64,000 nucleotides of DNA from an uncultured Gemmatimonadales bacterium. GTDB taxonomy: Bacteria; Gemmatimonadota; Gemmatimonadetes; Gemmatimonadales; GWC2-71-9. Below are positions 26,461 through 43,802 of this stretch, piece after piece. The first letter of the stretch is position 1. Each line of letters begins with the position of its first letter. The stretch spans positions 7,229 through 71,228 of the forward strand of contig CAWEMG010000017.1 in the NCBI GenBank assembly GCA_963810165.1, given 5' to 3'. The notes under the pieces are model-generated. The model had not been told where the DNA came from. It saw nothing but the letters and a program-made list of their open reading frames with translations, and did no database searches. Position numbers and translations under genes: made by a program.

Positions 26461-26718
26461 TGATACCGCCGGTACGCTAATCGTACGAGAGCCTTCTCGC
26501 CGGAGCGTAAAGGCCAGCTCGGCGGTGAACCCCACGGACTCGCGCATCTAGTTGCGCTGTGTCAGGTGAGGTTTCGCAAGGAGCGTACCTCGACGAAGCG
26601 ACTCGATTGTGCACTGGAGTGGCGGAGGGAATGACAACCGCCGATCTGATCATAGCCCCGATTTCTGAAGTCCGCTAGGTGACCGGCGCCACTTCCCCAG
26701 CAGTGCGCCGCAGGTACC

Positions 26719-27405
26719 ATGACATCCATGGCGCTTCACGAACGCACACCGATCGCAACCGGCTCAGCCGCCGACTTCCTCCCTCCGAAGCCAACGCTGC
26801 CGAAGCTTCGGGAGGCAGCGCGCGGCTGCAGAGGCTGTCACCTGTGGATCAACGCGACCCAGACCGTCTTCGGGGAAGGAGCAGCCTCTGCCGACGTCAT
26901 GCTGGTCGGGGAACAGCCGGGGGACCAGGAGGACCGGCAGGGGCACCCCTTCGTCGGCCCTTCAGGTAAGCTGCTCGATGCCGCGCTGGAACAAGCGGGC
27001 ATCGACCGCAGCCAGGTGTACGTCACCAACTCGGTAAAGCACTTCAAGTTCGTGCTGATCGAGCGGGGTCGCCGGCTGCACAAGAAGCCCAATGCGGCTG
27101 AGGTGCGGGCCTGTCATCCCTGGCTCGAAGAAGAAATCCGCCTGGTGAAGCCGAAGGTGATCGTGGCGCTCGGGGCCACCGCGGCTCAGGCGCTCCTAGG
27201 AAAGCAATTTCGAGTCACCCAGCAGCGGGGAAAGCCTGTGTCATCCGAGCTGGCGGAAACCGTGATTGCGACGGTACATCCATCCGCGGTGCTCAGGGCC
27301 CGCGATGCCGATCGAGAGCAGGCGCGGGAAGATTTTTTCCGGGATATGCAGAAGGTGGCAGCGTACCTACGCACGAGGAAAACAAAAGTGGCCGGATCGC
27401 GGTGA
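26719..27405 (+). CDS. udgX: UdgX-type (family 4-like) uracil-DNA glycosylase
   Basis: Fe-S Cys ligands (CRGCHLW, ACHPW), motif A VGEQPG, motif B VHPSAVLR, and the UdgX-specific inserted loop ERGRRLHKKP (compare KRRIH). Confidence 0.75.
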   Translation: MTSMALHERTPIATGSAADFLPPKPTLPKLREAARGCRGCHLWINATQTVFGEGAASADVMLVGEQPGDQEDRQGHPFVGPSGKLLDAALEQAGIDRSQVYVTNSVKHFKFVLIERGRRLHKKPNAAEVRACHPWLEEEIRLVKPKVIVALGATAAQALLGKQFRVTQQRGKPVSSELAETVIATVHPSAVLRARDADREQAREDFFRDMQKVAAYLRTRKTKVAGSR

Positions 27406-27445
27406 GGCGACCCGGCCACCCTGGTAGTGCTCTCCGGATGTCGGA

Positions 27446-27658
27446 CTACTTACCGAGCTTCCGGACGTTCTCGGCGGCAGGACCCTTCTGGCCCTGAACC
27501 ACGTCGAACTCCACGCGCTCACCCTCGGCCAGGCTCTTGAATCCTTCAGCCTGGATCGCGGAATGATGGACGAAGCAGTCCTTCTGACCATCCTCGGGGG
27601 TGATGAAGCCGAACCCCTTGGCGTCGTTGAACCACTTGACCGTGCCGGTGGTGCGCAT
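27446..27658 (-). CDS. cspA: cold-shock protein
   Basis: [35 protein letters not shown] (RNP1/RNP2). ATG 27658. Confidence 0.95.
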
Positions 27659-27926
27659 TGTTCCTACTCCTTGAAAATGAGTAATCGGAGTCCGGACATG
27701 CCACACCGGCCGACTACAGTTGCGCGTGAAATGCACCCCTCACGCAGGGTATCGCTGCCATGGCACGTCAAATCGTAAAGCGGCAGCAAAGAAAAAAAGG
27801 ACCAGCAAGCGCCGGCCCTTCTGATGACAGTCGAGAATCGGCAGCCCGGGTAGGCCCCGACGCTGGCAACAAGGTAGCTTGGTAGCGGTGTAGAGGCAAG
27901 CCTGAGCGGATCGCACTGATTGGGAG

Positions 27927-29724
27927 GTGGTCGTGATCGGGAAGCTGCTGGCCCGTCGGGGAATCCTCTCCAAGCGCGAGCAGGAAATTCGCGTCCGCGA
28001 GCAGGAGCTCCTGCAGCGTCTGGCGACCGCCCTCGAGCGGTTCGGATCGGATGTCGCCGCGGAGGACCTGCGCCGTTTTCAGGAGGCACGAGAACAGCTG
28101 AACGGGTTGTTCCTGCTGGTGATCGCCGGAGAGTTCAACTCCGGAAAATCGAGTTTCATCAACGCCCTGCTCGGGGAGCGGGTGCTGCCCGAAGGCGTCA
28201 CGCCGACGACCGACCGCATCAACATTCTCCGCCACGGTCCCGAGGTCTCCGAGCACCTGCTGGAGGCTTACCTGCTGGAGCGTACCCACCCGGCGGAGGT
28301 CCTGCGGGAGATCAACATTGTAGATACGCCGGGAACCAACGCCATTATCCGGCGGCACGAAGAGTTGACCCGGGATTTCGTGCCCCGGTCCGACCTGGTG
28401 CTGTTCGTGACCTCGGCGGATCGGCCCTTCACCGAGAGCGAGCGGGCCTTTCTGGAGCAGATCCGGGAATGGGGCAAGAAGATCGTCTTCGTGGTGAACA
28501 AGGTCGACATCCTCACGCGGCCGGAGGAGCGCGACGAGGTGCTGCGGTACGTGGAGGAAAACGCCACGGGCCTCCTGGGGGAGACGCCGCAGCTGTTCGC
28601 GGTCTCGGCCCGACAGGCGCTGGAAGCTCGGGGAGGCGGACGGGGATACGGCCGAGCAGGCGGATGGCGCGGGCGAACAGTTGTGGGAGCAGAGCGGTTT
28701 CGGCGCCGTGGAGGATTATCTGCTCAACACCCTCGACCAGCAGGAACGGGTCCGGCTGAAGCTCCTCAACCCGTTGAACGTCGGGCTGCGTCTCGCGTCG
28801 AAGTACAAGGAGGCCACGTTCGAGCGGCTCAAGCTGCTGGCGCAGGACGTCGAGGCGATTCAGAACATCGACCAGCAGCTGGCCCTCTTCCACCAGGAGA
28901 TGCTTCGGGACTTCGAGCCCCGACTGGCGCGCCTCGATGTGCTTCTGGGCGACATGGAACGGCGCGGCATGCGCTTCTTCGAGGAGACCATCCGGATCGG
29001 CCGCATCAAGAGTCTCATGGACAGCGAGGGCGTGAAGCGGACGTTCGAGCGGGAGGTCATCGGCGAGACACCGCGCGAGATCGAGGATGAGGTGGGCCGG
29101 GTCATCGACTGGATCGTCGAGAGAAATCTGAAGCTGTGGCACGACATCAGCGGGTACATCGAGCGGCGTCAGATCACCCGGCACCGCGAAGGCATGATCG
29201 GCGACGTTGGCTCCAGCTTCAACTACAACCGCCAGGCGCTGCTCGACTCGGTCGGCCGGGTATCCCGCGAGGTGGTGGGGAGCTACAACCGGGAGGTAGA
29301 GTCGCGCACCATCGCCAATGAAATCCAGGGGACCTTTGCCACCACCGCCCTGGCGCAGGCCGGCGCCATCGGCCTGGGTACGCTGGTGGTCACCCTGGTG
29401 AGCAGCGCCGCTGCCGATGTCACCGGGATCCTCCTGGCCACCGCCCTCGCGGTAGGCGGGTTCTACGTCATTCCGCGCAAGCGGCGCCAGGCCAAGCTGG
29501 ACTTCGAGCGCCGTATCAACCAGCTCGGCTCACACCTCAAGGACGTGCTGACCCGCCAGGTCCACCTGGAGCTGGAGCAATCCACCGCCCGCATCAACGA
29601 GGCAATCGCGCCGTACCGCCGCTTCGTGCAGAGCCAGCAGCAGCAGCTGAACGAAGCCCGGGGCGAGCTGGTGGCCACCGAAGACGCGCTGCTCCGGCTC
29701 AGGGCCGACATCGAGCAGCGCTGA
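27927..29724 (+). CDS. bacterial dynamin-like GTPase (BDLP), frameshifted
   Basis: G1 GEFNSGKSSFINALLG, G3 DTPG, G4 NKVD. Long helical stalk and a hydrophobic paddle (GAIGLGTLVVTLVSSAAADVTGILLATALAVGGFYVIP). Break about 28620-28630. Start GTG 27927 or 27933 after GGGAGG. Confidence 0.85.
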
Positions 29725-29887
29725 CCGATGGCCGGCGAAGGCCTTGACGCCATCAGAGCTAAGTGGTAGCCTAGCATGCCGATAGTCTCCAATTCTATCC
29801 AATGTGACGAACCTCCTCAGTCTTTCCGCAGTCGCTTTGAGCGGTAGCGGGAAGGCGTTTGCAGTTCCCTTCCGCCGGAGGTGGCAC

Positions 29888-30373
29888 ATGGACGCTCTCG
29901 TCGCGCTCGCCATTAGTATCGCAATCCTCATTGCGGGCTGGACCTACGTCGCTATCGATGTAGCGAACTTGCCGGTATGGGCGGGGATCGTGGCGTGGGG
30001 GTGCTTCTTTGCCGCCGGCGGGAAGACGACAGGGCTCACCAAAACCATCGCGGCAAATCTCTCCGGGGTATTCTGGGCGTTCCTCGCGCTTCAGGCCCTG
30101 CCCCGAGCGGGCGGTGGCACCGCGATCCTGGCGGTTCTGGTTGGCCTGGCCGCGCTCATCATGGTGCTGCAGGCGAAGGCTTCGCTCTTATCGTTCATAC
30201 CGGGAGCCTTCCTCGGCGCCGCAACGGCGGTCAGCGTGGTGACGCGAACAGGAGCCGATGCCTACGCCCACCCGTGGATAAAGACAGCCATCGCGTTGGT
30301 GGTCGGAGCGGTGCTGGGTTACCTGTCCGAGATGCTGGCGGCGTCACTCACGGGGAGAAAGAGGACGGCGTAG
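29888..30373 (+). CDS. DUF1097-like integral membrane protein
   Basis: ATG 29888; 4-5 TM helices; WAGIVAWGCFFAAGG motif. Confidence 0.55.
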   Translation: MDALVALAISIAILIAGWTYVAIDVANLPVWAGIVAWGCFFAAGGKTTGLTKTIAANLSGVFWAFLALQALPRAGGGTAILAVLVGLAALIMVLQAKASLLSFIPGAFLGAATAVSVVTRTGADAYAHPWIKTAIALVVGAVLGYLSEMLAASLTGRKRTA

Positions 30374-30447
30374 AGTCGTCTATGGGGAGTAAACAAAATC
30401 CGGAGCCTCTCGGGCTCCGGATTCTTCTTTTCTGGCCTTCCTGCCGC

Positions 30448-31328
30448 TCATTCCGTCGCCTGATCCAGCTCCCCCAGTGCCTTGAGCACCCTGTCGGGCT
30501 GTTCCTCCTGGACGAACTGCCCCGCACCGGGAACGCTCTCCATGGAGAAGTCCGGGATCTTTTCCTCCAGCAGCTCCCGCTCGTCCTCTTTCACCCCGCT
30601 CGGGTGCGTCGACACCGCCGACCAGGAGCCGCACCGGCACCTGGATCTCGTGGAGCTGATCCTGAAGCGACTCGGTCTCTTTCGACTTGGACATGCTCCG
30701 GAAGGCGTCGATCGAGCCATTCAGGTCGGCTGCCTGGCCCGCGGTGTATTCCCGGATGACCCGCGGCGTCACCCAGCTGGTATCGCCCGAGTTCTTGACG
30801 ATCTCCTTGCGCACGTCGTGGCGGAGCTTGCTTTCACTGACGGCCAGCTTCGTAATAAAGCTGCCCATCCGCAACGCCTTCTTCATTCCTGGCGTCGCCG
30901 CGCTCTCGACGGGTCCACCATCGATGGAGAGGATGCCGCGGACCATGTTCGGGGTTGGCGATGGCAAGCCGCAGCGCGATGGAGGCACCAGTAGAATTCG
31001 CGATGAACAGGGCCTCGGTGATGCCGAGCTGCTCGAGAGCCTTGCTTATCCGCTGGGTCTGGGCGGTGAACGAATAATCCGCCTTGGGAGGATGAGAGGA
31101 GCGGCCGTATCCGAGGGGTTCGATCACAATGCAGCGATAGCCGCGCTGGACCAGCGGGCCGGTGACCTTTCGATACCCGTAGGCGCCGCCGAAGATCCCC
31201 GGGATCAGGACCACCGGCTCGCCTGAGCCGATCACCGTCGTATGGAGGATTTCGCCCGGAGCGACTTCGACGTGGTGAACCACGGCGCTGTCGAGGGAGG
31301 CCACAAGCGCCAGGCCGATGAGAATCAT
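30448..31328 (-). CDS. alpha/beta hydrolase, two frameshifts
   Basis: VVLIPGIFGG, nucleophile elbow IANSTGAS. Sequence continues through three frames. Breaks at G4 30951-30954 (IANP | NMVRGILSIDGG) and about 30612-30620 (LLVGG | STHPSGVKEDE). Confidence 0.7.
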
Positions 31329-31347
31329 TGAGGCGACGATTCCGAGA

Positions 31348-31549
31348 CTACCAGGAGTCGCCGGTGACCTTCTTTTTCCGCTTGCGGCGGAGCGCCGCGG
31401 CGGTCTTGATGGCCCGCGCTTCGCTCGGCTTCACGTAGTGCCTGCCGGCGCCGGAGCTCGCCAAAAAGCCCCGACTTCTGGAGCTTGCGCTTGAAGAGCT
31501 TGAGCGCGCGCTCCAGGCTGTCTTCATCGCTCAGCCTGACTTCCGTCAT
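31348..31549 (-). CDS. rpsU: 30S ribosomal protein S21 (frameshifted: 202 nt)
   Basis: MTEVRLSDEDSLERALKLFKRKLQKSGLFGELRRRQ then HYVKPSEARAIKTAAALRRKRKKKVTGDSW* in the next frame. One extra base about 31440-31442. Confidence 0.85.
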
Positions 31550-31625
31550 CCCGCTGTCCTTGTTGAGATGAAAGAGGGGGCCGGCGCCAGTGCCAGCCCC
31601 CTGTGATCGGTCGGCTATTGAACGG

Positions 31626-32042
31626 TTACCGCTCCGATGCTGTGAGAAGCATAGCGCGAGATTCCTCGAACCACAAGGCGAGCGCGGCCGCCGCCGCACC
31701 ACCGCCATTGCTTCCCTTGGCCGCGTCGGCGCCGGGCATTTCGGCGGAGGTCAGCACCTCTCCCTCCGTCACTTCCGGACGTCCCAGCTCGAACACCAGA
31801 GGGTTCCGTAAGGTGTATTCGGCGGCGCAGCGGCCCGACTCGAGCAACCCCTCCTTCGACTCACAGAAGCTGAGGGTCACGAGCTCACGATCGGCGACAC
31901 TCAGGACGTGGTAGCCGGCGAAGCCGGGGATCTTCCGAAGCAGGGGTACGAACTCATCGTGAAGCTGGCGGCGGAGCAGATCCAGGGAAGCCTTGTTGAT
32001 GGCGCCGTTCTTGGGGCTGTACCTGCGGATGGTGACGAACAT
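31626..32042 (-). CDS. hypothetical protein (ABM/Dabb-like fold suspected)
   Basis: MFVTIRRYSPKNGA...GYHVLSVADRELVTLSFCESKEG resembles small alpha+beta barrel proteins. Weak. Confidence 0.35.
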   Translation of the reverse strand: MFVTIRRYSPKNGAINKASLDLLRRQLHDEFVPLLRKIPGFAGYHVLSVADRELVTLSFCESKEGLLESGRCAAEYTLRNPLVFELGRPEVTEGEVLTSAEMPGADAAKGSNGGGAAAAALALWFEESRAMLLTASER

Positions 32043-32123
32043 GTCCTCTGAGACTCCTACCCTTTCAATAAACGACTTCAGAACCGTAGGGGGAACATAA
32101 TCGGATCGGCAGATGGAGGGTTA

Positions 32124-32930
32124 CTAGCGGCTCAGCAGCCCGGCATCGATCACCAGCGGAGCGCCCGTTACATACCGCGCCCGGTCCGACGCCAGGTACA
32201 GCACCGCGTGGGCCACGTCCTCAGGCTCGATCCAGGGCACCGGCAGGAGGTTGCCCGCAGACCGCTCCGCGATCTGCTGGGGCGTCAGCCCTTCCAGCGC
32301 GGCCAGGCCATCGTTCATCGGGGTGTTTACCCCGGTGGGATGGATCGAGTTCACCCGGATGCCGTGCGGCGCAAGCTCGATCGCCCAGGACTTGGTGAGA
32401 CCGGTCAGGCCCCACTTCGAAGCGGCGTAGTGGCTCAGTCGTCCCATGCCGCGAAGGCCGGCGATGGACGAGTTGTTGATGATCACCCCCGATCCCTGCC
32501 GGATCATGACGGGGATCACCCGACGCGCCACCAGCCACGACCCCTTCAGATTGATGTCCAGCATGGCGTCCCACGCCTCTTCGGTGAGCTCGTGGGCCAG
32601 CCCGTAGGCGCAGATGCCGGCGTTGTTGAAGAGGATATCGATCCTGCCGAACCGGTCTACTGTGCCGGTCACCGCGTGAGTTACGGCGGCATCGTCGCGG
32701 ACATCCCCGGCAAAGGTGGCGCATTCGGTGTCGAGCTTCCGGCACTCCTCGGCCAGCGAGTCGAGATCGGACGCCGAGCCCATGCTGTAACCGGGATATT
32801 TCAGAGGGCGGGCGATATCGAACCCGGCAATTCGCGCTCCCTCTCGGGCCAGCGCCAGGGCGGTGGCCCGTCCCTGCCCGTGGGCCGCTCCGGTGATGAA
32901 CGCGACCTTGCCGGCGAACTCGCCCGTCAT
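32124..32930 (-). CDS. SDR oxidoreductase of the carveol-dehydrogenase / mycofactocin-coupled-like subfamily
   Basis: GKVAFITGAAHGQGRA, inserted YPGYSMGSASDLD segment, NNAG, SHYAASK (YxxxK). Confidence 0.8.
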   Translation of the reverse strand: MTGEFAGKVAFITGAAHGQGRATALALAREGARIAGFDIARPLKYPGYSMGSASDLDSLAEECRKLDTECATFAGDVRDDAAVTHAVTGTVDRFGRIDILFNNAGICAYGLAHELTEEAWDAMLDINLKGSWLVARRVIPVMIRQGSGVIINNSSIAGLRGMGRLSHYAASKWGLTGLTKSWAIELAPHGIRVNSIHPTGVNTPMNDGLAALEGLTPQQIAERSAGNLLPVPWIEPEDVAHAVLYLASDRARYVTGAPLVIDAGLLSR

Positions 32931-33483
32931 ACCGGCTTGCCGGCCGTGGCAGCCTCGCGTACACCCTTTCGATACGGCTGAAGATACTCGTCCAGGTCGA
33001 CGTCGAGCGCGTTATTGAAGACGTTGGTGGCCACCATGAGCGCGCCGAACGCCGTGAGCGCCACGATTTGAGTCCGTTGGAAATGAGCAGCCAACCGCTG
33101 ATACACCTCCTCTGGCACCTTGAAGGGGACACCGCCAGAGCCCGCCCGAAGTCCACCACCGCTGTCTCCCGGTCGTCCAGCTTGAGACGCTCCGGATTCT
33201 CACCGGTCTGGATCAGCATCCGCCGGAAGAAGGTGGAACAGATGAGGCAGTCGCTTTCGGCCGAGATCGCGTGGGCGAAGAGCGTGGTCAGCCGCTCTCC
33301 CAGGAATGGCTGCACCGTGTCGCGGAGCGGATACCACTCCATCAGCGCGTTAAAGGCGGGCAGCGAGTGCAGCAGCGTCCGCTTCATGTTGGTCATGCGG
33401 GCGTGGCCGCGGACGTGTGCATCCGCCGCCGCGCGCGCATCAGGCGGCGCGTTCTCGGGGTCGAGCGGCTCGATACGGGGCAT
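32927..33483 (-). CDS. carboxymuconolactone decarboxylase/AhpD-like family protein, frameshifted
   Basis: ATG 33483; MPRIEPLDPENAPPDARAA..., CLIC (CxxC). Tail PEEVYQRLAAHFQRTQIVALTAFGALMVATNVF is in ORF 32927..33118. Break about 33125-33135. TGA overlaps the SDR ATG (ATGA 32927-32930). Confidence 0.7.
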
Positions 33484-33541
33484 GCTGGAAGGCTCCGAGC
33501 TAGGGGCGATCCGGCAATTTAGATCGGGAAAGCCCCGGGTG

Positions 33542-34150
33542 TCAGAGGACGCGGCGGGAAGCGACGTGCCGGGCCAGGTACCACTTGCCCCGCGGAGTCG
33601 ACAGGTCGTCGTATACCACGCCCCCGGCGCCGGCACTCGAATGGATAATGCGGTTGTTTCCGGCGTAGATGGCGACATGGTCCACTCCACGGCCCTTGCT
33701 GGAGAACAGCATCAGGTCGCCGGGCTTGAGAGCGGTGGGGGTACGAGGCAGGGCTCGCCCTGCTGTGGCCTGCTGGCGGGAAGTGCGGGGCAAGCTCACG
33801 CCATGTTGACCAAACACGTACTGCACGAAACCGGAGCAATCGAAACCAACAGCCGGCTTGGCGCCGCCATACAGATAGCGCTTCCCGAGATACTGGTCTC
33901 CGGTGGCCAGCACGCGGGTGGCGCTGGCGCTCGCCGTTGTGCGCGGCAACCGCGCCCTGGGAGTCGAGCGGGCCGGTTTGGCGGCGCGAACGCTGACCCG
34001 GCTGCCACCGAGGGTAGCGACGACTGCGATAGGACCGAGGGTTGCTCGCACGGCGGGACCGCCGAGGCGGGGAAGCGACAGATTGACCTGCGCAGACAAC
34101 ACGCTCGGGAGCCCCGCCAGGAGCGGCAGAGTACAAGCGATTAGTCTCAT
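33542..34150 (-). CDS. NlpC/P60 (C40) cell-wall peptidase
   Basis: ATG 34150; signal MRLIACTLPLLAGLPSVLSAQ; catalytic FDCSGFVQYVF and DHVAIY. Confidence 0.85.
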   Translation of the reverse strand: MRLIACTLPLLAGLPSVLSAQVNLSLPRLGGPAVRATLGPIAVVATLGGSRVSVRAAKPARSTPRARLPRTTASASATRVLATGDQYLGKRYLYGGAKPAVGFDCSGFVQYVFGQHGVSLPRTSRQQATAGRALPRTPTALKPGDLMLFSSKGRGVDHVAIYAGNNRIIHSSAGAGGVVYDDLSTPRGKWYLARHVASRRVL

Positions 34151-37102
34151 TGTGACCTCACTCACTGAGTGACCGGGAGCGGTCAATGCAGGAGGTATGC
34201 CAAGATCCTCCAGCACCAGGCCCGCCTCGGTGATAAACAGATGCCCCTGAGCGCGGTAGCCGCCTCGCTGCTCGGCGTAAGTCAACACCAGTCGCGACTT
34301 GGCGCGGGTCATTCCCACGTAGAGCAGTCGACGGGCCTCCTGGATCTCGGCGGTTCGATCCTCCTGAATCGCCCTCCAGCCGGGAAGCACCTGGTTCTCG
34401 ACACCCACGACGTAGACCCGGGAGAATTCCAGACCCTTGGTCGAATGGAGGGTCAGCAGATTCACACGGTTGGGATCGGTCTCAGCCCCTTCGCTGCTCG
34501 ATAGCGCTACCCGGCGCAGCATATCGTCGATGTGCTCGCCGAGAGTATTTCCAGCGCTGGCCTGTATCAGCATTCGGAGGCGCTCGACGGAATCCGGGTA
34601 GCGCTCATCCACGGGGCGATCCTCGCGCAAGCGCTCCATGAGTGCGCGGCCTCCAAGCCGCTCGATCACTTCCTCGAGCCCAGGCGCGCCTTCGGCACCC
34701 GCGGCAAGCTCGGCAGCGTAGATGTCCAGGCAGTCGCTGTACCGGCCAAGGGTGAAGGGCCGGGTGATGTCACGAAAGAGAGTCTCTTCCTTGGAAGGGG
34801 AGATCTGCGGATCGAGCGCCAGCGCCAGACCGAGCTGGTCCAGAAGGTGGACCAGAGCAACCGTGCGGGCACGGCGCACCCTCAGCTCGTTGAGCCTGGG
34901 CACGACCGCGGCGAGTACGACGGCGTCGTCGAGTGCGTGATGCTCTCTGCCGGGAGGAATGTTGTACCTCTCGGCGAGGTACTTGAGCTTGACGCTGCCA
35001 TCGACCACGGCGCGTGCCAGTGGGAGGGTGTCGTAGAAAACCAGCTCATCGAACCCCTCGAAGCCACCGCAGGCGCGCCGAAGAACCGGAACATCGAACT
35101 CCTGTCCGTTGTGTGCCACGACGAGGTCGCTTCCCACGAACTCGCGGAACCTCCGCCACACTTCGGACATCGGCGGCGCGCCGATCAGGTCCGCATCGGT
35201 GTAGCCGTGTATATCGGTGGCCTGCGACGAGATGGAGCGGCTACACGACACCAGGGAATGGAACTGATCCACCACCACGTTGTCCGCGAACCCGTACCGC
35301 CGCAATGTCTACGATCTGGGACGATTCGAAATCAAAGTCGCTGGTCTCGATATCGAAGGCGACAAAGTCGTCGAAATCGGCTTTCAGGGCCTCGGTGTGT
35401 ACCAGTTGAAGCGCCTTGAACAACCGGAGCGGTGACCCCCCGTCGGGGTCTTGGACGGCCCGTAGTACCAGATCGGCCAGCTCCGGGCACGTCGGCGGAC
35501 GTGAGCCGGTGAGCGCGAGTTATCCCCGCGCCTCGGAGCATGGCGATCAAGGGGATCTCGAGACCAGCTCTCGGTTCGACCCAGACCCGCCCTTCCGAGG
35601 CAACGCACTGCGTCAGTCGCTTGGCCAGGGCAAGAGCCCCCGGATAAAGCGATGGCTCCCTCAGATCATGATGGTACTCCTCCAGTGGATTCCGCCCGGC
35701 CCCGATGGGCCGCGCGAGCAGCTCATCCACCAGGCCGGTCAAGGATTGGTGAGACCGGCCCATGCCCCGCAGATTTTCCAAGTGATAGATCAAACGCCAC
35801 ACCCGTCTCCGGTCGGCATCGCCTTTGGGTCGTTGAGTGGCGAAGGCGCGCAGGTTCCTGAGAAAGTCCTTCTCTCTGGATGAGGCTTTGCGGATTTCCT
35901 GCCGCAGGGCGGGACTGAGAGCCAGAGCTGCCAGCGCTCCCAGCAGGATTGGGTCATCCGGCGAGCGAATGACACGCAAGGACGCGATTACCCATCCGAC
36001 GACTTTGTCGTCGACCAGGGCTTGGCCGCGGGCCATCCGACAGGGGATTCCCGCCCGAATCAACCGCTTCTCGAGATCCCGTCCCATCCAGCGGTACCGG
36101 TAGAGAATGGCATAGTCACCCCAGCCGGTGTCTCCCGTTGCGCGCTCGCTCAGAATGTCCCGAATGAGCCACTCGGCCTCGACTTCTTCGTTCTCGAATC
36201 CGCACGCCACCACCTCGAAGGGCGACTTCAGTGTGGTGTCGATCTGCTTTTCGAACAGTACCGGATTGCAGGCGATCAGTCTCCGGGCAGACTCCAGAAT
36301 CTGAACCGAGCATCTGCGGTTCTCCTCGAGCACGATCGGCTCGCGGAGATTGAAGTCCTCACGGAACCGGCCCATGATGCCGGGATCGGCACCGGTCCAC
36401 GAGAAAATCGATTGCTCGTCGTCTCCCACGCCAAAGAGACGGCGGTGGTCCTCGGCAAGCCGGCGGACGATGCCATACTGGGTCGGACTCAGATCCTGGA
36501 ACTCATCCACCAGCACGTAATCCCAGCGTGAGCGCAGCTCCTTGGCCGCGCTCTCATTGGTGCGAAGAAGTTTCTCGGTCAGCGTGATGAGATCATCGAA
36601 ATCCGCCAGATTCCTGGACCGCAGCGCCTCCTGGTACTGCCCGAAGAACGCCATGCCACGGTCGCTCAGTACCTTGCCTTGTAACTGGTGGAGACTGAAC
36701 TGCGTCGAGCGCGTGGGAGCATCGCTTGGCTGGAATGCGGAGCCGGCGCAGCACCCGCTCCTGGTACTCGCGGTCTGCCACGCCGAAGCCTGGTCGCAGG
36801 CCGCACCGCTCGGCGTAGTCCCGCAGGATCCTGAGGCAAATCGAATGCAGCGTCCCGCGGGTGACGTCGGCCGCGGTGACTCCCCGGGTGTCATGAAGGC
36901 GGGTGGCGATCTCCTCGGCAGCCTTGTTGGTAAAGGTCACTGCGAGAATTCGGCGTGGCGGGATGCCCAGCTCTTCGATCAGATGCTGGATGCGGTAGAT
37001 CAGGCAGTAGGTTTTCCCGGCTCCAGGGCCCGCAATGACCAGAAGCGGGCCCAGTGGCGCCTCGATCGCTCTGCGCTGCTCAGGGGTCGGCGCGAAACTC
37101 AT
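34151..37102 (-). pseudogene. UvrD/PcrA-family helicase with a DEDDh 3'-5' exonuclease domain nested between helicase motifs IV and V (at least 3 frame breaks as assembled)
   Basis: Helicase motifs: VIAGPGAGKTY (I), VTFTNKAAEE (Ia), VLVDEFQDL (II), GVGDDEQSIFSW (III), ENRRCS (IV), LHSTKGLEFSRVYV (V), LLYVGMTRAKSRLVL (VI). Exonuclease motifs: FVAFDIETSD (ExoI), VAHNGQEFDVPVL (ExoII), HHALDDAVVLA (ExoIII). Breaks about 36720, 35520 and 35285. No stop codon before the NlpC/P60 ATG in the final frame. Confidence 0.8.
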
Positions 37103-37782
37103 CAGCGGGCAGTACCGACGAAGGAGCGGGCCCACCGAACCAGAGCCTCAGCCAGCTCTTCCATCACAGAGCCGGCCGTGCGCCCGGATCGAGACGGAAC
37201 CCCGAACGAGTGGTCGGCCCCTTCGACGAGATGAAGTGTTGCGCGCGATCCCAGCCGCGAGCAGACCTCGGTGATGAGGTCCTGCTGGGCAAATTGATCA
37301 CGGGTTCCCTGAAGGAAGAGCATCGGTACATCAACCCTTTCGAGGTGCTCGGCCCGGCTGGTACCTGGTTTACCTGGAGGGTGAAGCGGAAACCCCAGAA
37401 ATGCCAGCCCGCGGATCCCCGGTAGCGAGGTGGCGGCCGCACCCGACGTCATGCGTCCGCCGAATGATTTGCCGCCCGCGATAACCGGGAGATCCGGCTC
37501 CAGCTCCTGAGCCTGGCTGACTGCTGAGCGCACTGTTGCTTCGGCGGTAGCGGGAGCGTCCGGCCGACGTGCTCCGGCCTCCATATAGGGAAACTGGTAG
37601 CGCAGGGTGGCGACCTCTCGCTCTGCCAGCGCCATGGCCATCGACTCGAGAAACCGATGGCGCATCCCCGCCCCGGCGCCGTGGGCCAGAACGTAGAGCA
37701 GCCAGGGATGGCGTGGACGGTCGAGTAAAGCTGACACCGGAGCCCGGCCACCATCGAGCAGGATCTTGAGCTCTTCAGTCAT
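37102..37782 (-). CDS. COG3571-type alpha/beta hydrolase (KANL3/Tex30-like)
   Basis: VLAHGAGAGMRHRF, AGGKSFGGRM, FLGFPLHPPGKP and LFLQGTRDQF. TGA overlaps the helicase ATG (37102). Confidence 0.7.
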   Translation of the reverse strand: MTEELKILLDGGRAPVSALLDRPRHPWLLYVLAHGAGAGMRHRFLESMAMALAEREVATLRYQFPYMEAGARRPDAPATAEATVRSAVSQAQELEPDLPVIAGGKSFGGRMTSGAAATSLPGIRGLAFLGFPLHPPGKPGTSRAEHLERVDVPMLFLQGTRDQFAQQDLITEVCSRLGSRATLHLVEGADHSFGVPSRSGRTAGSVMEELAEALVRWARSFVGTAR

Positions 37783-38827
37783 GCGACGCGGCGCCAGATC
37801 GAGCCCTTACACACTCCTCCATGCGCTTGTCATTCCGGAACCGCAGGAACACGGGCTGTCGCAGTAGCCCATCGTCCGTCCGCTCTGTGAACTTCACTTC
37901 GCACACCAGCCGAGGCTCGACCCAGGTGAGCCCCCGTTCCTGCGGGATCGGCCCACCGCACGGTGCGCGCGCGCGGCGGGTCTCTTCCAGGGTAGCTCGA
38001 ACCTGGGTCAGTTGCCTGTCGCTAAAGCCGGTTCCAGCCCGTCCGGAATAGGTGAGGATGCCGTCCACGTATTGTCCGAGTAGCAACGCGCCGAATCCGG
38101 TCCGCGCCCCCCTGGACGCAGTAAAGCCCACCACGACGAAGTCATCGGAGAGACGAGTGCGGATCTTCAGCCAGCTGGGAGACCGGCCGCTGCGATAGGG
38201 CGAGTCCGCTCGCTTCGCCAGAATTCCTTCCAGACCCAGCTTCAGGACCTCCTGATAAAGCAGCTCCCCGTCCCCCTCGACGTGGTCGAGGTAGCGTATC
38301 ACCCCTCCCGCAGACAGGAGCTTCAGCAGCAGTGCCTTTCGGGTCGAGAGCGGGAGAGGCCGCAAGTCGAAGCCTTCAGCAGCAAGAAGATCGAACGCAA
38401 AGAAGGTCGCGGGGATCTCGACGGCGGCCTGACGGATATCGAGGCTCCGGGTCAGCTTGGCACGCTGCTGAAGCCGTTGAAAGCTGGGCCGGCCGGAGCC
38501 ATCGAGCGCCACCACTTCGCCGTCAAGGACCAGGCCGTCTACGGGGAGGGCCGCTACCGCACGGCTCACTTCGGGAAATCCGGCCGAGAGATCGTTACCG
38601 TTGCGGGAGAAGAGCCGCGGCTTTCCCGAGACGCAGGTAGCCAGCAGGCGATACCCATCCAGCTTGAGCTCAAACAGCCATGCAGGGTCTGAGAAGGGGC
38701 GCTCCCTTGGCTCGGCCAGCATCAGGGGCGCGGTTTCGGCATTGATATCCCTTCTCGGCGGGCTTAGCCGCTCGAGGGCGGCGCGAATGCCGAGGGGGGA
38801 AAGCGGGCCGGATTTGGACTCAGGCAT
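37775..38827 (-). CDS. ATP-dependent DNA ligase (LigD ligase-domain/LigC-type; no Pol or PE domain)
   Basis: Adenylation motif I ELKLDGYRLLA, GLVLDGEVV, FFAFDLL, EGILAKR, WLKIR, OB-fold tail. 350 aa. Confidence 0.9.
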   Translation of the reverse strand: MPESKSGPLSPLGIRAALERLSPPRRDINAETAPLMLAEPRERPFSDPAWLFELKLDGYRLLATCVSGKPRLFSRNGNDLSAGFPEVSRAVAALPVDGLVLDGEVVALDGSGRPSFQRLQQRAKLTRSLDIRQAAVEIPATFFAFDLLAAEGFDLRPLPLSTRKALLLKLLSAGGVIRYLDHVEGDGELLYQEVLKLGLEGILAKRADSPYRSGRSPSWLKIRTRLSDDFVVVGFTASRGARTGFGALLLGQYVDGILTYSGRAGTGFSDRQLTQVRATLEETRRARAPCGGPIPQERGLTWVEPRLVCEVKFTERTDDGLLRQPVFLRFRNDKRMEECVRARSGAASHD

Positions 38828-38902
38828 GGACCAAATTTAGCTTATATAGACATCCCCGAACCTCTCCTTGCGGGCTCCCGCTTTGCGGGATATAGGAACC
38901 TT
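38828..38902. promoter_or_regulatory. divergent ligase/ku control region, AT-rich, possible leaderless starts
   Basis: 75 nt. ATATAG hexamers at 38844-38849 and 38890-38895; the latter ends 7 nt before the ku ATG. TAAATT on the minus strand lies 6 nt before the ligase ATG. No Shine-Dalgarno visible for either gene. Confidence 0.35.
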
Positions 38903-39766
38903 ATGCCTCCCCGTCCAATCGCCTCGGCCAGCATCTCGTTCGGCCTCGTGTCGGTCCCGGTAAGCCTCTACTCGGCCAGCGAGTCGTCGGCCAACGTCAG
39001 CTTCAACATGCTGCACAAGACCTGTGGCAGCCGGTTGAAGCAGCAGTACATCTGCCCCCAGGAAGGCGGCGTGGTGGAAAAGGACGAGATCGCCAAAGGC
39101 TACGAGTTCTCCAAGGGTCAGTACGTCACCTTTACTCCCGAGGAGATCAAGGCCCTGGATGAGAAGGCCACCAACTCGATTGATATCGCCGAATTCGTGC
39201 CCCTCGACGCGGTAGACCGGATGTACCTGGACAAGGTGTACTACCTGGGCCCGGACAAGGGTGGGGACCGGGCGTACCGGCTGCTGGGAGAGGCCCTCAA
39301 AGTCACTGGCCGAGCTGCGCTGGGGCAGTACTCCGCGCGTGGCAAGCAACACCTGGTGCTGGTCCGGCCGTTGGACGGCGTCTTGGTCATGGAGCAGCTG
39401 CATTATCCCGCCGAGCTCCGGCCGGCTGCGGAGGTCCCGCACCCGGAGACTCCGGTCAAGGAGACCGAGCTTGCCCTGGCCAAACAGCTGATCGAACAAT
39501 CGTCAACCGACGACTTCCGCCCGGAGAACTATCACGATACGGTGCGGGAGCGAGTGATCGACGCGATCCAGCGAAAGGTCGAGGGCCAGGAGATTACGGC
39601 AGAGGCTCCGCCGCCGGAAACGAAGATCATAGATCTGATGGACGCGCTGAAGGCCAGCCTGGCCAAGCAAGGGGCGGCAGCCTCCGAGAAAAAGTCCTCC
39701 AAACGTGGGGACGAGGACGAGGAGGAGTCGGTGCCGAGGAAGCGAAAGGCGGGAGGCAGGGGCTAG
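38903..39766 (+). CDS. ku: Ku protein (non-homologous end joining)
   Basis: ISFGLVSVPVSLYSA, KGYEF, YVTFTPEEI, YLDKVYYLGPDKGG and a basic Lys/Arg C-terminal tail. Confidence 0.95.
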   Translation: MPPRPIASASISFGLVSVPVSLYSASESSANVSFNMLHKTCGSRLKQQYICPQEGGVVEKDEIAKGYEFSKGQYVTFTPEEIKALDEKATNSIDIAEFVPLDAVDRMYLDKVYYLGPDKGGDRAYRLLGEALKVTGRAALGQYSARGKQHLVLVRPLDGVLVMEQLHYPAELRPAAEVPHPETPVKETELALAKQLIEQSSTDDFRPENYHDTVRERVIDAIQRKVEGQEITAEAPPPETKIIDLMDALKASLAKQGAAASEKKSSKRGDEDEEESVPRKRKAGGRG

Positions 39767-39795
39767 GTCTCGACTCGCGACTCGCGACTCGAGAC
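39767..39795. repeat. 29-nt near-perfect palindrome built from CTCGCGA repeats
   Basis: GTCTCGA-CTCGCGA-CTCGCGA-CTCGAGAC; 14-nt arms with one mismatch. Lies between the ku stop and the DUF72 ATG (39800). Confidence 0.6.
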
Positions 39796-39799
39796 TTCC

Positions 39800-40522
39800 A
39801 TGAACATCCTGACCGGCACCAGCGGGTGGTCGTACAAGGAGTGGAGGGGAAGCTTCTACCCCGCCAAGCAGCCGGCCGAAGACATGCTTCGCTTCTACGC
39901 GGGAAATTTTCCCGCCGTCGAAGTCAACAACTCGTTCTATCGCATCCCCGCAGAGCGGGTCTTGGCAAACTGGGCCGAACAGGTGCCCGAGACCTTCCGC
40001 TTCATCATGAAGGCATCCCGACGGATAACCCACAGTAACCGCCTGAAGGACGAGGACGGCTCGCTGGGGTACTTTCTGCGCGCGATAAATCCGCTGGGTA
40101 AGCGACTCGGCCCTACCCTGTTTCAGCTACCGCCCAACTTCCAGAAAGACATCGACCGGCTGCGAGCCTTTCTGGCGGCGCTGCCCCGCCAGTGGCCGGC
40201 CGCAATGGAGTTTCGCCATTCGTCCTGGTTCGTGGATGAGGTTTACGACCTGCTCAGCCAGCGGGATGTCGCCCTGGTGGCGGTAGATGAAGAGGAGTCG
40301 GAGGGCAGCGGCTCACCGCTGGTACCCACCGCTTCGTGGGGGTATCTGAGACTGCGACGCGCTGCGTACGACGAGCCGGCATTGGAGCAGTGGGTCTCCC
40401 GGATTCGAGAAAACCGGTGGACCGATGCCTATGTCTTTCTCAAGCATGAGGATGGCAGCCCCACTGGACCCGCAGCAGCCGCCCACATGGGCCGCATCGT
40501 CGCCCAACAGTCGCAAACGTGA
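39800..40522 (+). CDS. DUF72 (YecE-like) protein, second copy
   Basis: ILTGTSGWSYKEWRGSFYP, VEVNNSFYRIP, FQLPPNF and MEFRHSSW. Confidence 0.85.
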   Translation: MNILTGTSGWSYKEWRGSFYPAKQPAEDMLRFYAGNFPAVEVNNSFYRIPAERVLANWAEQVPETFRFIMKASRRITHSNRLKDEDGSLGYFLRAINPLGKRLGPTLFQLPPNFQKDIDRLRAFLAALPRQWPAAMEFRHSSWFVDEVYDLLSQRDVALVAVDEEESEGSGSPLVPTASWGYLRLRRAAYDEPALEQWVSRIRENRWTDAYVFLKHEDGSPTGPAAAAHMGRIVAQQSQT

Positions 40523-40607
40523 CCGAGGTCACGACCCCGAACGACCTCCTGGGCTAGAGTGTGCGTCCGTGGAAGAAGCACACCGTGCATAGCTCACGGA
40601 GGAAACA

Positions 40608-40964
40608 ATGGCAAACAAGATCAACAGCTGGAACGATGAGGACAACTGGTGGCGCAGCAACTTCAGTTCTCGGCCCTATGCCACCGGCCGCAGCTATGAG
40701 GATTTCCGTCCCGGCTACCAGTACGGCTTCGAATCAGGCCAGCACCACATGGGTCGGAAGTGGAATGACGTCGAATCAGACCTGAAGACCGGCTGGGACC
40801 GGTTCCAGAGTCGGGGTAACAGCACCTGGGAGAACGTGAAGGACGCAGTTCGCGATGCCTGGCATCGCGTGACCGGGCAGAAAGATCTCGATACCAGCCG
40901 CATGAGTGAGGCGAGCCGTACCTCCGGGTCGGACCCGTTTGGACCGGGCAATCGCGGCCGTTAG
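40608..40964 (+). CDS. Trp/Arg-rich hypothetical stress-type protein
   Basis: MANKINSWNDEDNWWRSNF...GWDRFQSRGNSTWENVKDAVRDAWHRVTG. Followed by a terminator. Confidence 0.5.
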   Translation: MANKINSWNDEDNWWRSNFSSRPYATGRSYEDFRPGYQYGFESGQHHMGRKWNDVESDLKTGWDRFQSRGNSTWENVKDAVRDAWHRVTGQKDLDTSRMSEASRTSGSDPFGPGNRGR

Positions 40965-40982
40965 TGGACTATGAGGAAAATG

Positions 40983-41017
40983 GAGCCCGGGACGAGTGTC
41001 CCGGGCTCGTCCTTTTG
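40983..41017 (+). terminator. rho-independent terminator
   Basis: GAGCCCGGGAC-GAGT-GTCCCGGGCTC followed by GTCCTTTTGTG. Confidence 0.6.
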
Positions 41018-41266
41018 TGCCCTCGTGCCGCATTTCTGCGTGACGTGCGACACGGCAGCCAGGGTCCCGAACGTGTCTCTTAAGGCTCGTCAGGGCGAGT
41101 GGATAGCGCCAGGAAATTACGTGGGTCGCAAGTCACGTGGCAGCGTCCGCCATTCCTTCCGCCATCCCGCTCAAGCCCCTGCACTGCAATCGATACCAGG
41201 TCTGCCACCAGCGGCGGCTCACAACAGAGGTACTGGCGAACCGGTCAGCACAAAAGGAGCAACACG

Positions 41267-41890
41267 ATGACGATGCCAAACACGGAAGCCCGCGCCGGTC
41301 AGCAAGGCGGCGGTCAGGAAGGCGGAGGCAGCGCCCGGGAACAGATCCGTGAGGTGAAGGATCAGGTGGTCACACAGGCCCGCAGCAGTCTGGAGCAGGC
41401 CCGCGACCGAGCCAGCTCGAGTCTGGGAGAGAGCAAGGGCCAGTTTGCCGAGCAGTTCGGCACTATCGCTGAGGCGCTCCGCCGCACTACGGAGCATCTG
41501 CGCTCCGAGGACCAGCAGCGGATCGCGGGAATCACGGACACGGTAGCCCGCCAGGTCGAGCAGGTCGCCGAATACCTTAGAAACAAGGATGCCGCGGCCA
41601 TGAAAACCGATCTGGAGAACCTGGCGCGCCGGCAGCCCGCCATAGTGTTGGGTGGGGCTCTGATTCTCGGCCTGATCGGCGCGCGTTTCCTCAAGAGCTC
41701 GCGGAAGTCCCGTGACGGCTCGCGGCGCTTCGGCGGCGAGCGCCGGTACGGCAACGGCGGATACGATCAGTTCTCCAGTGACCCACAGTTCTCGGGCGGC
41801 TACGATCGCTTTGCTGAGGACACCGAATCACAGTGGCAGACGCCGTCCACGGGTCGCGGCTATCAGGGAGGCGGCTATGCCGGCGCTTAG
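41267..41890 (+). CDS. hypothetical membrane-anchored stress protein
   Basis: AAGGAG 41254-41259, ATG 41267. Gln/Glu/Arg helical region, one TM (AIVLGGALILGLIGARFL), Gly/Tyr-rich tail. Confidence 0.5.
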   Translation: MTMPNTEARAGQQGGGQEGGGSAREQIREVKDQVVTQARSSLEQARDRASSSLGESKGQFAEQFGTIAEALRRTTEHLRSEDQQRIAGITDTVARQVEQVAEYLRNKDAAAMKTDLENLARRQPAIVLGGALILGLIGARFLKSSRKSRDGSRRFGGERRYGNGGYDQFSSDPQFSGGYDRFAEDTESQWQTPSTGRGYQGGGYAGA

Positions 41891-42275
41891 AGAGGATCGG
41901 AGCATCGGCGAGCTGTTTGGCCAGCTTAGCCAGGACATGACGCTCCTGGTCAGGCAAGAGCTGCAGCTCGCGCGGGCGGAGATGAGTGACAAGATCTCCC
42001 GCCTGACGACTAACCTGATCTCGGTGGGGGCGGGTGGTTTCGTCGCCTACCTCGGTGGCTTGGCACTGGTTGCGGCCCTGATCCTGGCCATCCGGGATCT
42101 GGCGAATATTTCCCTCGCGGTCTCGGCGCTGATCGTGGGCGCGGTTCTCGCGATCGCAGGCTACATGATGCTGCAGAAGGGCCTGAAGGAACTGAAGCGG
42201 GTGGACCTCGCCCCCCGCCGAACAGTTGAATCCCTGAAAGACGACGTCCAGTGGGCAAAGGAGCAACGGTCATGA
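41877..42275 (+). CDS. holin-X / DUF1469-family small membrane protein
   Basis: SIGELFGQLSQDMTLLVRQELQLARAEM followed by two TM helices. ATG 41877 overlaps the previous stop. Confidence 0.6.
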   Translation: MPALREDRSIGELFGQLSQDMTLLVRQELQLARAEMSDKISRLTTNLISVGAGGFVAYLGGLALVAALILAIRDLANISLAVSALIVGAVLAIAGYMMLQKGLKELKRVDLAPRRTVESLKDDVQWAKEQRS

Positions 42276-43285
42276 GTGAGTACCAGAGACAGAATCCCGG
42301 GCTCGCTTACGAGCCGACCAATCAGGAATTCGGATCGAGCGCCGAATCACGAGGCGAGAAGAGCCCCGAGGAGATCGAGCGCGAGATTGAGGAGACCCGT
42401 AACCGGATGAGTCAGAATATCGACGAGCTGGGAGACCGGCTCAGCCCTCAGAACCTCAAGCACGAGGCCAAGAGCGCCATCAAGAACGCGGCCTCCGATG
42501 CGGTCTCCAACGTAGGGGAGCAGGCCCGTCGCACCGGCTACCGTCTGGTGGACGTGATTCGCGAAAACCCGCTTCCCGTCATTGCCGTCGGCGCCGGGGT
42601 CACCTGGCTGCTGACGCAGCGTACCAACAGCGACGTCTCGGGAGACCGGATGGCCCGGTACGCCTACACCGGTCCCGATCGGCGCCAGGGCGAAGGCGAG
42701 CTCCGGCATCAAGACATCGGATCGGCGGAGCGGTCAGTGGCATCAAGGAAAAAGTGAGCGAGACGGCCAGCGGGATTGCCGGGCGGGCGAGCGAGCTTGC
42801 CAGCGGCACCCAGGAGCGGGCCGGAGAGATCGGCTGGCAGGCGCGCCGCCAGACCGAGCGGGTCAAGACCAACTTGGAGCACGTGGCGGAAGAAAATCCG
42901 CTCACGATCGCGATCGGCGCCACCATCCTCGGCATGGCCCTCGGTCTGCTGCTTCCCGGCACCGAGCGGGAAAATGAGCTGATGGGACCGGCTCGCGACC
43001 AGTTGGTCGACCGGGCCGAGCGGACTGCGGAGCGGGTGAAGGACGCGGCGGTTGAGGCCGGGCGCGAGGTGAAGGATGCGGTGCAGACTGAGATCACCGA
43101 GCGCACCCGAGGTCAAGCAGGCGGTGCAGGAAGCCGGCATGATGGTGAAGGAGCAGGTGAAGGAGTCGGCCAAGAAGGTGAAGAAAGGAAGCAGGACGCG
43201 ACGAATCGGGCAGAGTCGGCAACCGGAACAGCGACCGACCGCCGGGCTAACAACCCGGCAAGGGACGGGACAAAGGAGACCATGA
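42272..43285 (+). pseudogene. DUF3618-domain protein (at least 2 frame breaks; 3' end uncertain)
   Basis: SPEEIEREIEETRNRMSQNIDELGDRLSP (DUF3618), TM PLPVIAVGAGVTWLL. Continues as GIKEKVSETASGIAGRASE...NPLTIAIGATILGMALGLLLP...APEVKQAVQEAGMMVKEQVKESAKKVKK across three frames. ATGA overlap with the holin-like gene. Confidence 0.55.
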
Positions 43286-43802
43286 GTCTCGACTCACTGG
43301 AGAAACTGTTCCTGGAAGAGCTGAAGGACATCTACAACGCCGAGAAGCAGCTGACCCGGGCGCTCCCGCGGATGGCCAAAGCCGCCGAGTCGCCTGAGCT
43401 GAGGCAGGCCTTCACCAGCCACCTGAAGGAAACCGAGGGCCAGATTCAGCGGCTCGAGCGGGTCTTCCAGGAGCTGGGCCAGGCCGCCCGGGGCAAGAAG
43501 TGCAAGGGCGATGGAAGGGTTGATCGAAGAGGGCAAGGAAATGATGGAGGAGGAGGGCGAGCCCCAGGTGCTGGATGCGGCCCTGATTGGCTGCAGCCCA
43601 GAAGGTGGAGCACTACGAGATCGCCGCGTATGGCTGTCTTCGCACCTATGCCGAGCTCCTCGGCTACTCCGAGGCCGCGCAGCTGCTGCGGCAGAACCTC
43701 AGGAAGAGGAAGCGGCCGACAAGAAGCTGAACCGTTGGCCGAGGGTGGCATCAACGAGCGGCGGCAATGGCCGGCGCAGGACAGGACGAAGAGGACGAAT
43801 AG
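43282..43802 (+). pseudogene. YciE/DUF892 ferritin-like protein (at least 4 frame breaks in 0.5 kb)
   Basis: AAGGAG 43273-43278, ATG 43282. MSLDSLEKLFLEELKDIYNAEKQLTRALPRMAKAA...HLKETEGQIQRLE. Then [37 protein letters not shown] and [11 protein letters not shown] each lie in different frames. Confidence 0.6.

Follow-up and report, generated by a model that had tools for sequence, protein, structure and literature searches.

Does the UvrD-like helicase gene described here encode a single enzyme with an exonuclease built into its motor, and what would such an enzyme do for the cell? The question arises from a 64,000-nucleotide stretch of DNA from an uncultured Gemmatimonadales bacterium (contig CAWEMG010000017.1 of assembly GCA_963810165.1, positions 7,229 to 71,228; hereafter the window), for which a preliminary description had read a DEDDh exonuclease domain at the position of the helicase 2B domain. 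Our analysis indicates that the gene encodes one bifunctional helicase-exonuclease of 979 residues, whose role in this lineage is, on balance, most likely the trimming of 3′ ends for Ku/LigD end joining.

The coding sequence lies on the minus strand at 34158..37102 and comprises 979 codons and a TGA stop after removal of five inserted bases, which are considered further below. It starts with an ATG at 37102 that overlaps the stop of an upstream hydrolase gene. All nine motif strings listed in the preliminary description were found on the minus strand between 37039 and 34283 in the order given. Helicase motifs I (VIAGPGAGKTY, 37039-37007), II (VLVDEFQDL, 36516-36490), III (GVGDDEQSIFSW, 36432-36397), and IV (ENRRCS, 36324-36307) precede the exonuclease motifs ExoI (FVAFDIETSD, 35366-35337), ExoII (VAHNGQEFDVPVL, 35119-35081), and ExoIII (HHALDDAVVLA, 34942-34910), and these are followed by helicase motifs V (LHSTKGLEFSRVYV, 34450-34409) and VI (LLYVGMTRAKSRLVL, 34327-34283), as had been claimed. 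The helicase motifs include the Walker A Lys, the DE of motif II, and the arginine finger, and the D-x-E of ExoI, the D of ExoII, and the H-x4-D of ExoIII are present as FDIETSD, NGQEFD, and HHALDD, respectively. Pfam annotation of the repaired translation returned UvrD-helicase (1e-66, 225.8 bits against a cut-off of 23), UvrD_C (7e-35, 121.6 bits, cut-off 25.6), and RNase_T (6e-23, 82.6 bits, cut-off 24). The UvrD_C match was split in two, and a complete RNase_T match, covering profile positions 1-163 of 164, was located between the two stretches. This nested pattern of motifs and domains is far beyond chance.

The protein has the four-subdomain layout 1A/1B/2A/2B with 2B inside 2A, and its 2B is interrupted. 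Residues 1-358 (36028..37102; all coordinates in this and the next paragraph are on the minus strand) contain motifs I-IV, account for the UvrD-helicase match at 1e-66, represent domains 1A/1B with the first half of 2A, and align to Rep 6-399 and PcrA 14-411. The second half of 2A, with motifs V and VI, corresponds to residues 869-960 (34220..34495; Pfam UvrD_C). Between the two halves, an all-helical segment of residues 359-470 (35692..36027) was assigned to the N-terminal part of a kept 2B by profile alignment up to UvrD residue 478, and residues 831-868 (34496..34609), which align to PcrA 484/504-555 and UvrD 498-550, to its C-terminal part. Single-sequence comparison of P0002, the closest orthologue, with Rep matched residues 8-384 to 6-399 and residues 867-948 to 541-618, and the family profile aligned to residues 6-478 and 498-643 of Escherichia coli UvrD and to residues 8-491 and 504-652 of PcrA. 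If 2B is taken to span residues 374-542 of Rep and 378-550 of UvrD, the protein retains about 100 residues from the N-terminal side of this domain and about 50 from its C-terminal side. Because the profile alignment covers UvrD on both sides of the insert, the nuclease is located inside the kept 2B; a module of about 360 residues is inserted between the positions matching UvrD ~478 and ~498, and the nuclease is thus nested in 2B, just as 2B is nested in 2A. The preliminary description was correct in placing the exonuclease at the position of 2B, but the module has been inserted within 2B and has not replaced it.

The inserted module begins with a small alpha/beta unit of three strands and two helices (residues 489-550, 35451..35637), recognized in AlphaFold2 (AF2) models, and continues with a conserved helix (residues 556-568, 35397..35435; model and alignments) that leads into the exonuclease and bears an F-K-x-x-Q signature, in which F, K, and Q are nearly invariant in family alignments A2 and A4. 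The DEDDh 3′-5′ exonuclease domain itself spans residues 576-746 (34862..35375), was identified by Pfam RNase_T, profile search, and Foldseek, and has the catalytic residues D583/E585 (ExoI), D669 (ExoII), and H720/D725 (ExoIII). It is followed by a family-specific helical bundle (residues 750-830, 34610..34852; AF2 helices 750-825). Neither the alpha/beta unit nor the bundle had a Pfam match or a match among the top PDB hits, which for the alpha/beta unit were obtained with Foldseek. In a genome scan for the family made with a four-sequence alignment, most matches to the bundle were in Gemmatimonadota and Planctomycetota, and one was in a metagenome-assembled genome (MAG) labelled Chloroflexi. 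The alpha/beta unit is larger in family members of 1000-1090 residues. A degenerate DHH (RecJ-like) motif, suggested by the first strand and helix of this unit in some distant members, e.g. 'IAVIAPATVDGACAAVIL', was considered and rejected, as Pfam was unsupportive and returned only SIS_2 with an E value of 0.058 in one sequence.

Predicted structures agreed with this layout. The AF2 model of full-length P0002 had a predicted local distance difference test score (pLDDT) of 87.6 and a predicted template-modelling score (pTM) of 0.78, and that of the insert alone had values of 87.5 and 0.79, respectively. Along the P0002 model, helices at 366-475 are followed by the alpha/beta unit at 489-550, the helix at 556-568, the exonuclease at 576-746, the bundle at 750-830, and the C-terminal 2B helices, and 2A resumes at residue 879. 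The exonuclease in the model has the canonical five strands (579-586, 596-605, 608-616, 659-662, and 687-690), and in the model of the insert alone it was superposed by Foldseek on E. coli epsilon (2ido_A) with a root-mean-square deviation of 1.8 Å and a template-modelling (TM) score of 0.85. The PolC exonuclease, the DnaQ domain of Cas2-DnaQ, TREX1/2, and ExoX were among the other fold matches of the insert, and the family profile matched the PolC exonuclease 2p1j at 8.8e-53. Together with the full-length coverage of the RNase_T profile, these results bear out the earlier view that the exonuclease is complete; it is a DnaQ/PolC-like DEDDh fold with the ExoI/II/III motifs and catalytic His of DnaQ/epsilon and PolC. 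Unlike in those enzymes, no polymerase is attached or partnered here, and the domain is embedded in a helicase accessory domain between family-specific elements. With the whole model as a query, the best PDB matches were Deinococcus radiodurans UvrD, PcrA, Rep, and E. coli UvrD (E about 1e-30, TM by target 0.64-0.69), and no solved structure with an internal nuclease was retrieved. The protein therefore shares with UvrD/PcrA/Rep a superfamily 1A (SF1A) motor, motifs I-VI, and the 1A/1B/2A/2B subdomains at about 20% structure-based identity, but its 2B is split by the exonuclease insert and it has neither the GIG motif nor the Tudor domain. At the 2B columns matching the duplex-binding GIG motif, G-I-G was found in none of 55 aligned family sequences, some of which keep only 'NFPR'. 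The C-terminal Tudor domain, which binds RNA polymerase in canonical UvrD/PcrA, is likewise missing across the family and was not present in the AF2 model, where the protein ends about 20 low-confidence residues after the last core strand (residues 966-979 had pLDDT below 50).

The same architecture was found in many other genomes. A search of 5.8 billion proteins for close orthologues yielded over 120 clusters in which the protein is intact and about 979 residues long; most are from Gemmatimonadales MAGs, and they show 65-87% identity over 99% of the query and the same Pfam set. Distant members were collected by searching 1.84 billion cluster representatives exhaustively with HMMER, which gave twelve full-length collinear representatives at 40-70% identity and about 35 more proteins of 990-1090 residues at 31-37% identity. 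RNase_T was located between the N- and C-terminal ends of the UvrD_C match in all nine representatives scanned (31-47% identity), and the 55-sequence family alignment was collinear end to end, so that the order of domains seen in the window recurs in both the close clusters and the distant members, the latter comprising about 45 clusters at 25-47% identity. The orthologues are single ORFs (open reading frames) of 960-1090 residues with neither a stop nor a start at the junctions, in line with the single protein proposed in the preliminary description. Named sources of the family are Gemmatimonadota (many), Planctomycetota (Gemmatales, Fimbriiglobus), Acidobacteriota (Blastocatellia), and Latescibacterota. 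Across the 55 sequences, K30, D199, E200, Q230, R263, K888, G889, E891, R924, and R932 of the helicase and D583 and D669 of the nuclease are invariant, and E585, H720, and D725 are kept in at least 90%. The window copy has every conserved catalytic residue of both parts; judged from these residues, an SF1A motor and a DEDDh exonuclease, both apparently competent, are combined in one polypeptide.

No NCBIfam model was passed by the family. Its best scores were with the equivalogs Rep, PcrA, and UvrD and reached roughly one third of the required values (336/951, 329/911, and 270/1144 bits, respectively). In databases, family members are inconsistently named PcrA, UvrD, superfamily I helicase, or DNA polymerase III epsilon-like, and a defined family would improve this annotation.

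The genes around the helicase-exonuclease gene point to a likely function in DNA end joining. On the minus strand, the order is ligD, hydrolase, helicase-exonuclease, and nlpC, with stops and starts that overlap or nearly abut. The first gene of this apparent operon (37775-38827, minus strand) encodes a LigD of 350 residues, an ATP-dependent DNA ligase consisting of the ligase domain only, which aligns to residues 183-538 of the 841-residue three-domain LigD of the related contig L001. Neither a phosphoesterase nor a Prim-Pol domain was detected in any part of the window; in another relative (L019), LigD is without the phosphoesterase part only. The second gene (37102-37782, minus strand) encodes an alpha/beta hydrolase (Abhydrolase_11; KANL3/Tex30-like), whose start overlaps the end of ligD and whose stop overlaps the helicase start. 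This hydrolase gene also stays directly upstream of the helicase gene in rearranged distant loci (L037, 3652-4260; L057, 3695-4298). The last gene, for an NlpC/P60 lipoprotein (33545..34150, minus strand), starts 8 nt after the restored helicase stop. Divergent from ligD, a Ku gene is located at 38852-39766 on the plus strand, the product of which is 83% identical to Ku of L001. No terminator-like site was detected across 33000-39300, and a promoter scan was uninformative, with two promoter-like sites against 0.9 expected.

Each of the 19 close-clade loci for which an upstream flank was available had Ku together with LigD-Abhydrolase_11-helicase, and several of them showed gene overlaps of 4 bp. 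In five distant Gemmatimonadota loci (44-56% identity), Ku was located within 0-5 kb of the helicase gene in different arrangements, and LigD was present in four. Further ligases and a DUF72 gene were observed in this neighbourhood. Seven Gemmatimonadales loci (44-55% identity) carry a gene for an ATP-dependent DNA ligase of about 500 residues, convergent to the helicase gene and within 0-5 kb of it (L036, 7238-8755; L056, 988-2502; L040, 10428-11906; also L044, L047, L048, and L058); this ligase is 28-31% identical to the LigD ligase domain, and the 3′ end of its gene overlaps or abuts the helicase gene in two loci. A DUF72 gene follows Ku in the window (39800-40516, plus strand) and is close to Ku or the helicase gene in several differently arranged Gemmatimonadota loci (L007, 747-1439; L037, 8356-9021; L042, 8056-8748; L043, 9776-10471; L057, 2642-3288), which suggests that it belongs to the same neighbourhood.

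Because the gene appears to form an operon with LigD beside Ku, a role of its product in 3′-end processing during end joining can be proposed. SF1A motors travel 3′ to 5′ along the tracked strand, and enzymes of the DEDDh type cleave off nucleotides at a free 3′-OH. The motor would load on a 3′ single-stranded tail or a DNA end and move 3′ to 5′, and the tethered exonuclease would shorten a free 3′ end. In the simplest case, this would be the 3′ end that trails behind the motor on the tracked strand, and a single polypeptide would then both unwind and shorten the 3′ strand. Similar same-strand action is known from separate proteins, UvrD and ExoI/ExoX, in 3′-nick-directed mismatch excision, and RecB and AddA act comparably on the 3′ strand with a different nuclease. 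Ku-held ends could then be sealed by the ATP-dependent ligase once their 3′ overhangs, flaps, or damaged 3′ termini had been trimmed away. The 2B domain of UvrD, Rep, and PcrA is a rotating, autoinhibitory, and partner-binding domain, and the nuclease placed in it may couple the capture of a 3′ end to on/off switching of the helicase.

Several points weigh against this reading. The 19 close-clade loci are syntenic throughout and count roughly once, as about one observation rather than independent evidence; the rearranged distant loci with Ku and LigD are more telling. Planctomycetota, Acidobacteriota, and other distant members have the gene in unrelated housekeeping contexts, and since the Ku/LigD linkage is confined to Gemmatimonadota, neither an ancestral nor a general role of the family in end joining is tenable. 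The polarity, substrate, and coupling attributed to the enzyme are drawn from family membership. In UvrD/PcrA-DNA structures, moreover, 2B is positioned above the duplex in front of the motor, and the 3′ end of the tracked strand exits on the 1A side, so that the placement of the nuclease over the translocating strand suggested in the preliminary description is not self-evident. The same-strand model thus requires the large insert or a rotation of 2B to bridge the distance from 2B to the 3′ exit at 1A. Finally, a precedent for a link with Ku is offered by mycobacterial UvrD1, in which 2B is autoinhibitory and which Ku activates via the Tudor domain of the helicase (PMC13646824; bioRxiv 10.1101/2023.09.29.560180). 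The nested protein, however, is without the Tudor domain by which UvrD1 binds Ku, and any contact with Ku would therefore have to differ from that of UvrD1.

The protein can be compared with several known systems. UvrD1 is likewise a UvrD-family helicase tied to Ku and with an autoinhibitory 2B, the link here being one of gene context, and its structure (9dci) was matched by the family profile at 3e-173; it differs in having no nuclease and in binding Ku through the Tudor domain. UvrD1 is not known to be encoded in an operon with ku/ligD. With RecB/AddA/AdnB, the nested protein shares a UvrD-like SF1A 3′-5′ motor and, by prediction, a nuclease on the 3′-ended strand, and these known systems act at double-strand breaks. 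They have, however, a C-terminal PD-(D/E)xK endonuclease and work in multi-subunit recombination complexes, whereas the protein described here is a single polypeptide with an internal DEDDh domain and a linkage to LigD/Ku. Sequence matches to AddA, RecB, and AdnB were weak and restricted to the motor, and no Pfam match to a PD-(D/E)xK RecB-family nuclease domain was found in the nested protein. WRN and the ExoDinG proteins of Bacillus/Staphylococcus combine a helicase with a DnaQ-superfamily 3′-5′ exonuclease in one chain, as seen here, and the exonuclease domain of Staphylococcus aureus DinG was among the sequence and fold matches of the nested protein. Unlike the nested SF1A enzyme, WRN and ExoDinG are superfamily 2 helicases with an N-terminal nuclease.

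Helicase-nuclease fusions are a known kind of enzyme, and RecB, AddA, AdnB, WRN, ExoDinG, and Dna2 are among those characterized. The preliminary description had stated that known helicase-exonuclease fusions keep the nuclease at a terminus, and indeed no characterized internal one was found in the PDB or in the literature searched. Neither a curated family (NCBIfam) nor a solved structure (PDB) was found for the nested helicase-exonuclease, and no paper on an SF1A helicase that carries a DEDDh domain inside 2B was found in the literature searched, most subscription journals being outside its coverage. The family sequences are already public under automatic names, and the nested enzyme seems not to have been studied before. 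No part of UvrD/Rep/PcrA helicases is more debated than 2B, where activating partners act. A natural and widely conserved nuclease embedded in 2B offers a ready system for the coupling of 2B movement to DNA-end chemistry. Bacterial end joining is usually described as requiring only Ku and LigD, and the operon link with LigD and Ku in Gemmatimonadota nominates a candidate for 3′-end trimming in this process.

WRN is a 3′-5′ helicase, and its exonuclease is stimulated by Ku. A more specific proposal, which we consider rather unlikely, is that the nested enzyme is the basis of a bacterial equivalent of the WRN-Ku partnership with a different architecture. The end processor would be co-transcribed with LigD, capture of the 3′ end would set the rotation of 2B and thereby gate unwinding, and unwinding would in turn feed the nuclease. 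If true, this proposal would supply the 3′-resection activity needed by bacterial end joining; we know of no dedicated nuclease that has been assigned to this step.

The main rival to 3′-end trimming for end joining is a general housekeeping role. The protein would then replace UvrD/PcrA as the main UvrD-type helicase of the lineage, its built-in exonuclease would degrade the unwound strand from the 3′ end in mismatch/excision repair, and the Ku/LigD neighbourhood would be accidental. Such a role is favored by the distant members, which are found among PBP1, TsaD/E, and GatCAB genes with no Ku or LigD nearby, by high scores on PcrA and UvrD models (e.g. 481 bits for P0142), and by the occurrence of only one UvrD-like gene in the 64-kb window. 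A motor and an exonuclease that both work 3′ to 5′ on one strand would also suit the 3′-nick-directed mismatch excision of E. coli. However, the scores are far below the UvrD, PcrA, and Rep equivalog cut-offs, the Tudor domain and GIG motif of canonical UvrD/PcrA are missing, and in this clade the gene is packed into an operon with LigD, with Ku/LigD proximity recurring in rearranged loci. We therefore regard a housekeeping role as a serious possibility, although on the whole an unlikely one.

The exonuclease domain might instead be non-catalytic and act as a structural or DNA-end-sensing regulator of the helicase. A Latescibacterota member, P0162, has a degenerate exonuclease (residues ~620-765) in which ExoI reads D-I-R, with loss of the glutamate, and the ExoIII histidine is absent; some lineages can thus retain the fold without catalytic activity. 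However, the window protein has the full set of five DEDDh residues, as do almost all of the 55 aligned sequences, which makes a purely regulatory domain very improbable in this case. A function in anti-phage or anti-plasmid defence, as a stand-alone helicase-nuclease comparable to the Gabija systems that contain GajB or to Nhi-like systems, is also very unlikely. PADLOC returned a match to GajB, a UvrD-type protein, at 2e-86 and one to a Cas-associated DEDDh protein at 2.5e-31, but the models concerned match any UvrD helicase and any DEDDh domain, respectively. GajB sits beside the OLD-family nuclease GajA, whereas neither a GajA-like gene nor another defence partner was found in any neighbourhood examined, and over an identity range of 65-100% the gene keeps its chromosomal place among ribosomal and housekeeping genes, in stable synteny.

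The reading of the gene as one protein depends on the repair of its frame. As printed, the minus strand from 37102 to ~34150 is divided into four long ORF pieces in three frames. We mapped the frame breaks by DNA alignment of the window to the related contigs L011 and L001, and each break was found to be one extra base in the window. Three breaks, at about 36720, 35520, and 35285, had been noted previously; the alignment revealed five, the noted ones being near the first three. The extra bases are at 36707 (approximate within a few nt), 35476 (approximate), 35283 (GG[A]CAAC), 34178 (approximate), and 34169 (approximate), all given for the minus-strand gene. The last two mask the true stop TGA at 34160-34158, and the printed helicase ORF consequently continues in frame into the NlpC/P60 lipoprotein gene (ATG at 34150); the gene had been thought to end at 34151 and in fact ends at 34158. 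After removal of the five bases, the 979-codon ORF is equal in length to that of P0002 and 87.7% identical to it, with a ratio of non-synonymous to synonymous substitution rates (dN/dS) of 0.089, and the repaired gene is under strong purifying selection.

Single-base frame jumps also occur in the flanking syntenic genes, with about 15 of them within 18.5 kb (window 25331-43796), where they interrupt about ten genes, including those for ribosomal protein S21 (rpsU, 31351-31549) and a dynamin-like GTPase (27933-29721); further examples are in an Abhydrolase_1 gene (30451-31328) and at 32936-33483, 42272-43186, and 43282-43796. Around the helicase gene, the jumps are mostly insertions with no obvious homopolymer setting. 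The window is thus rich in errors, and any ORF-based reading of it requires frame repair. Because similar jumps affect about 15 places in the neighbouring genes, including that for S21, the five frame breaks are almost certainly single-base insertion errors of the sequence and not biological. Five frame-shifting insertions within 2.95 kb and a lost stop codon could otherwise be taken as real mutations in a dead copy, but the similar frame jumps in the S21 gene, the dynamin-like gene, and six other neighbouring genes, the uninterrupted frame after removal of the five bases, and the low dN/dS make a pseudogene highly improbable. That the four printed ORFs in three frames represent a split helicase and an independent exonuclease gene, fused only by the repair, is refuted by the intact orthologues, which are all single ORFs, and by the mapping of the junctions in the window to single-base insertions inside conserved codons.

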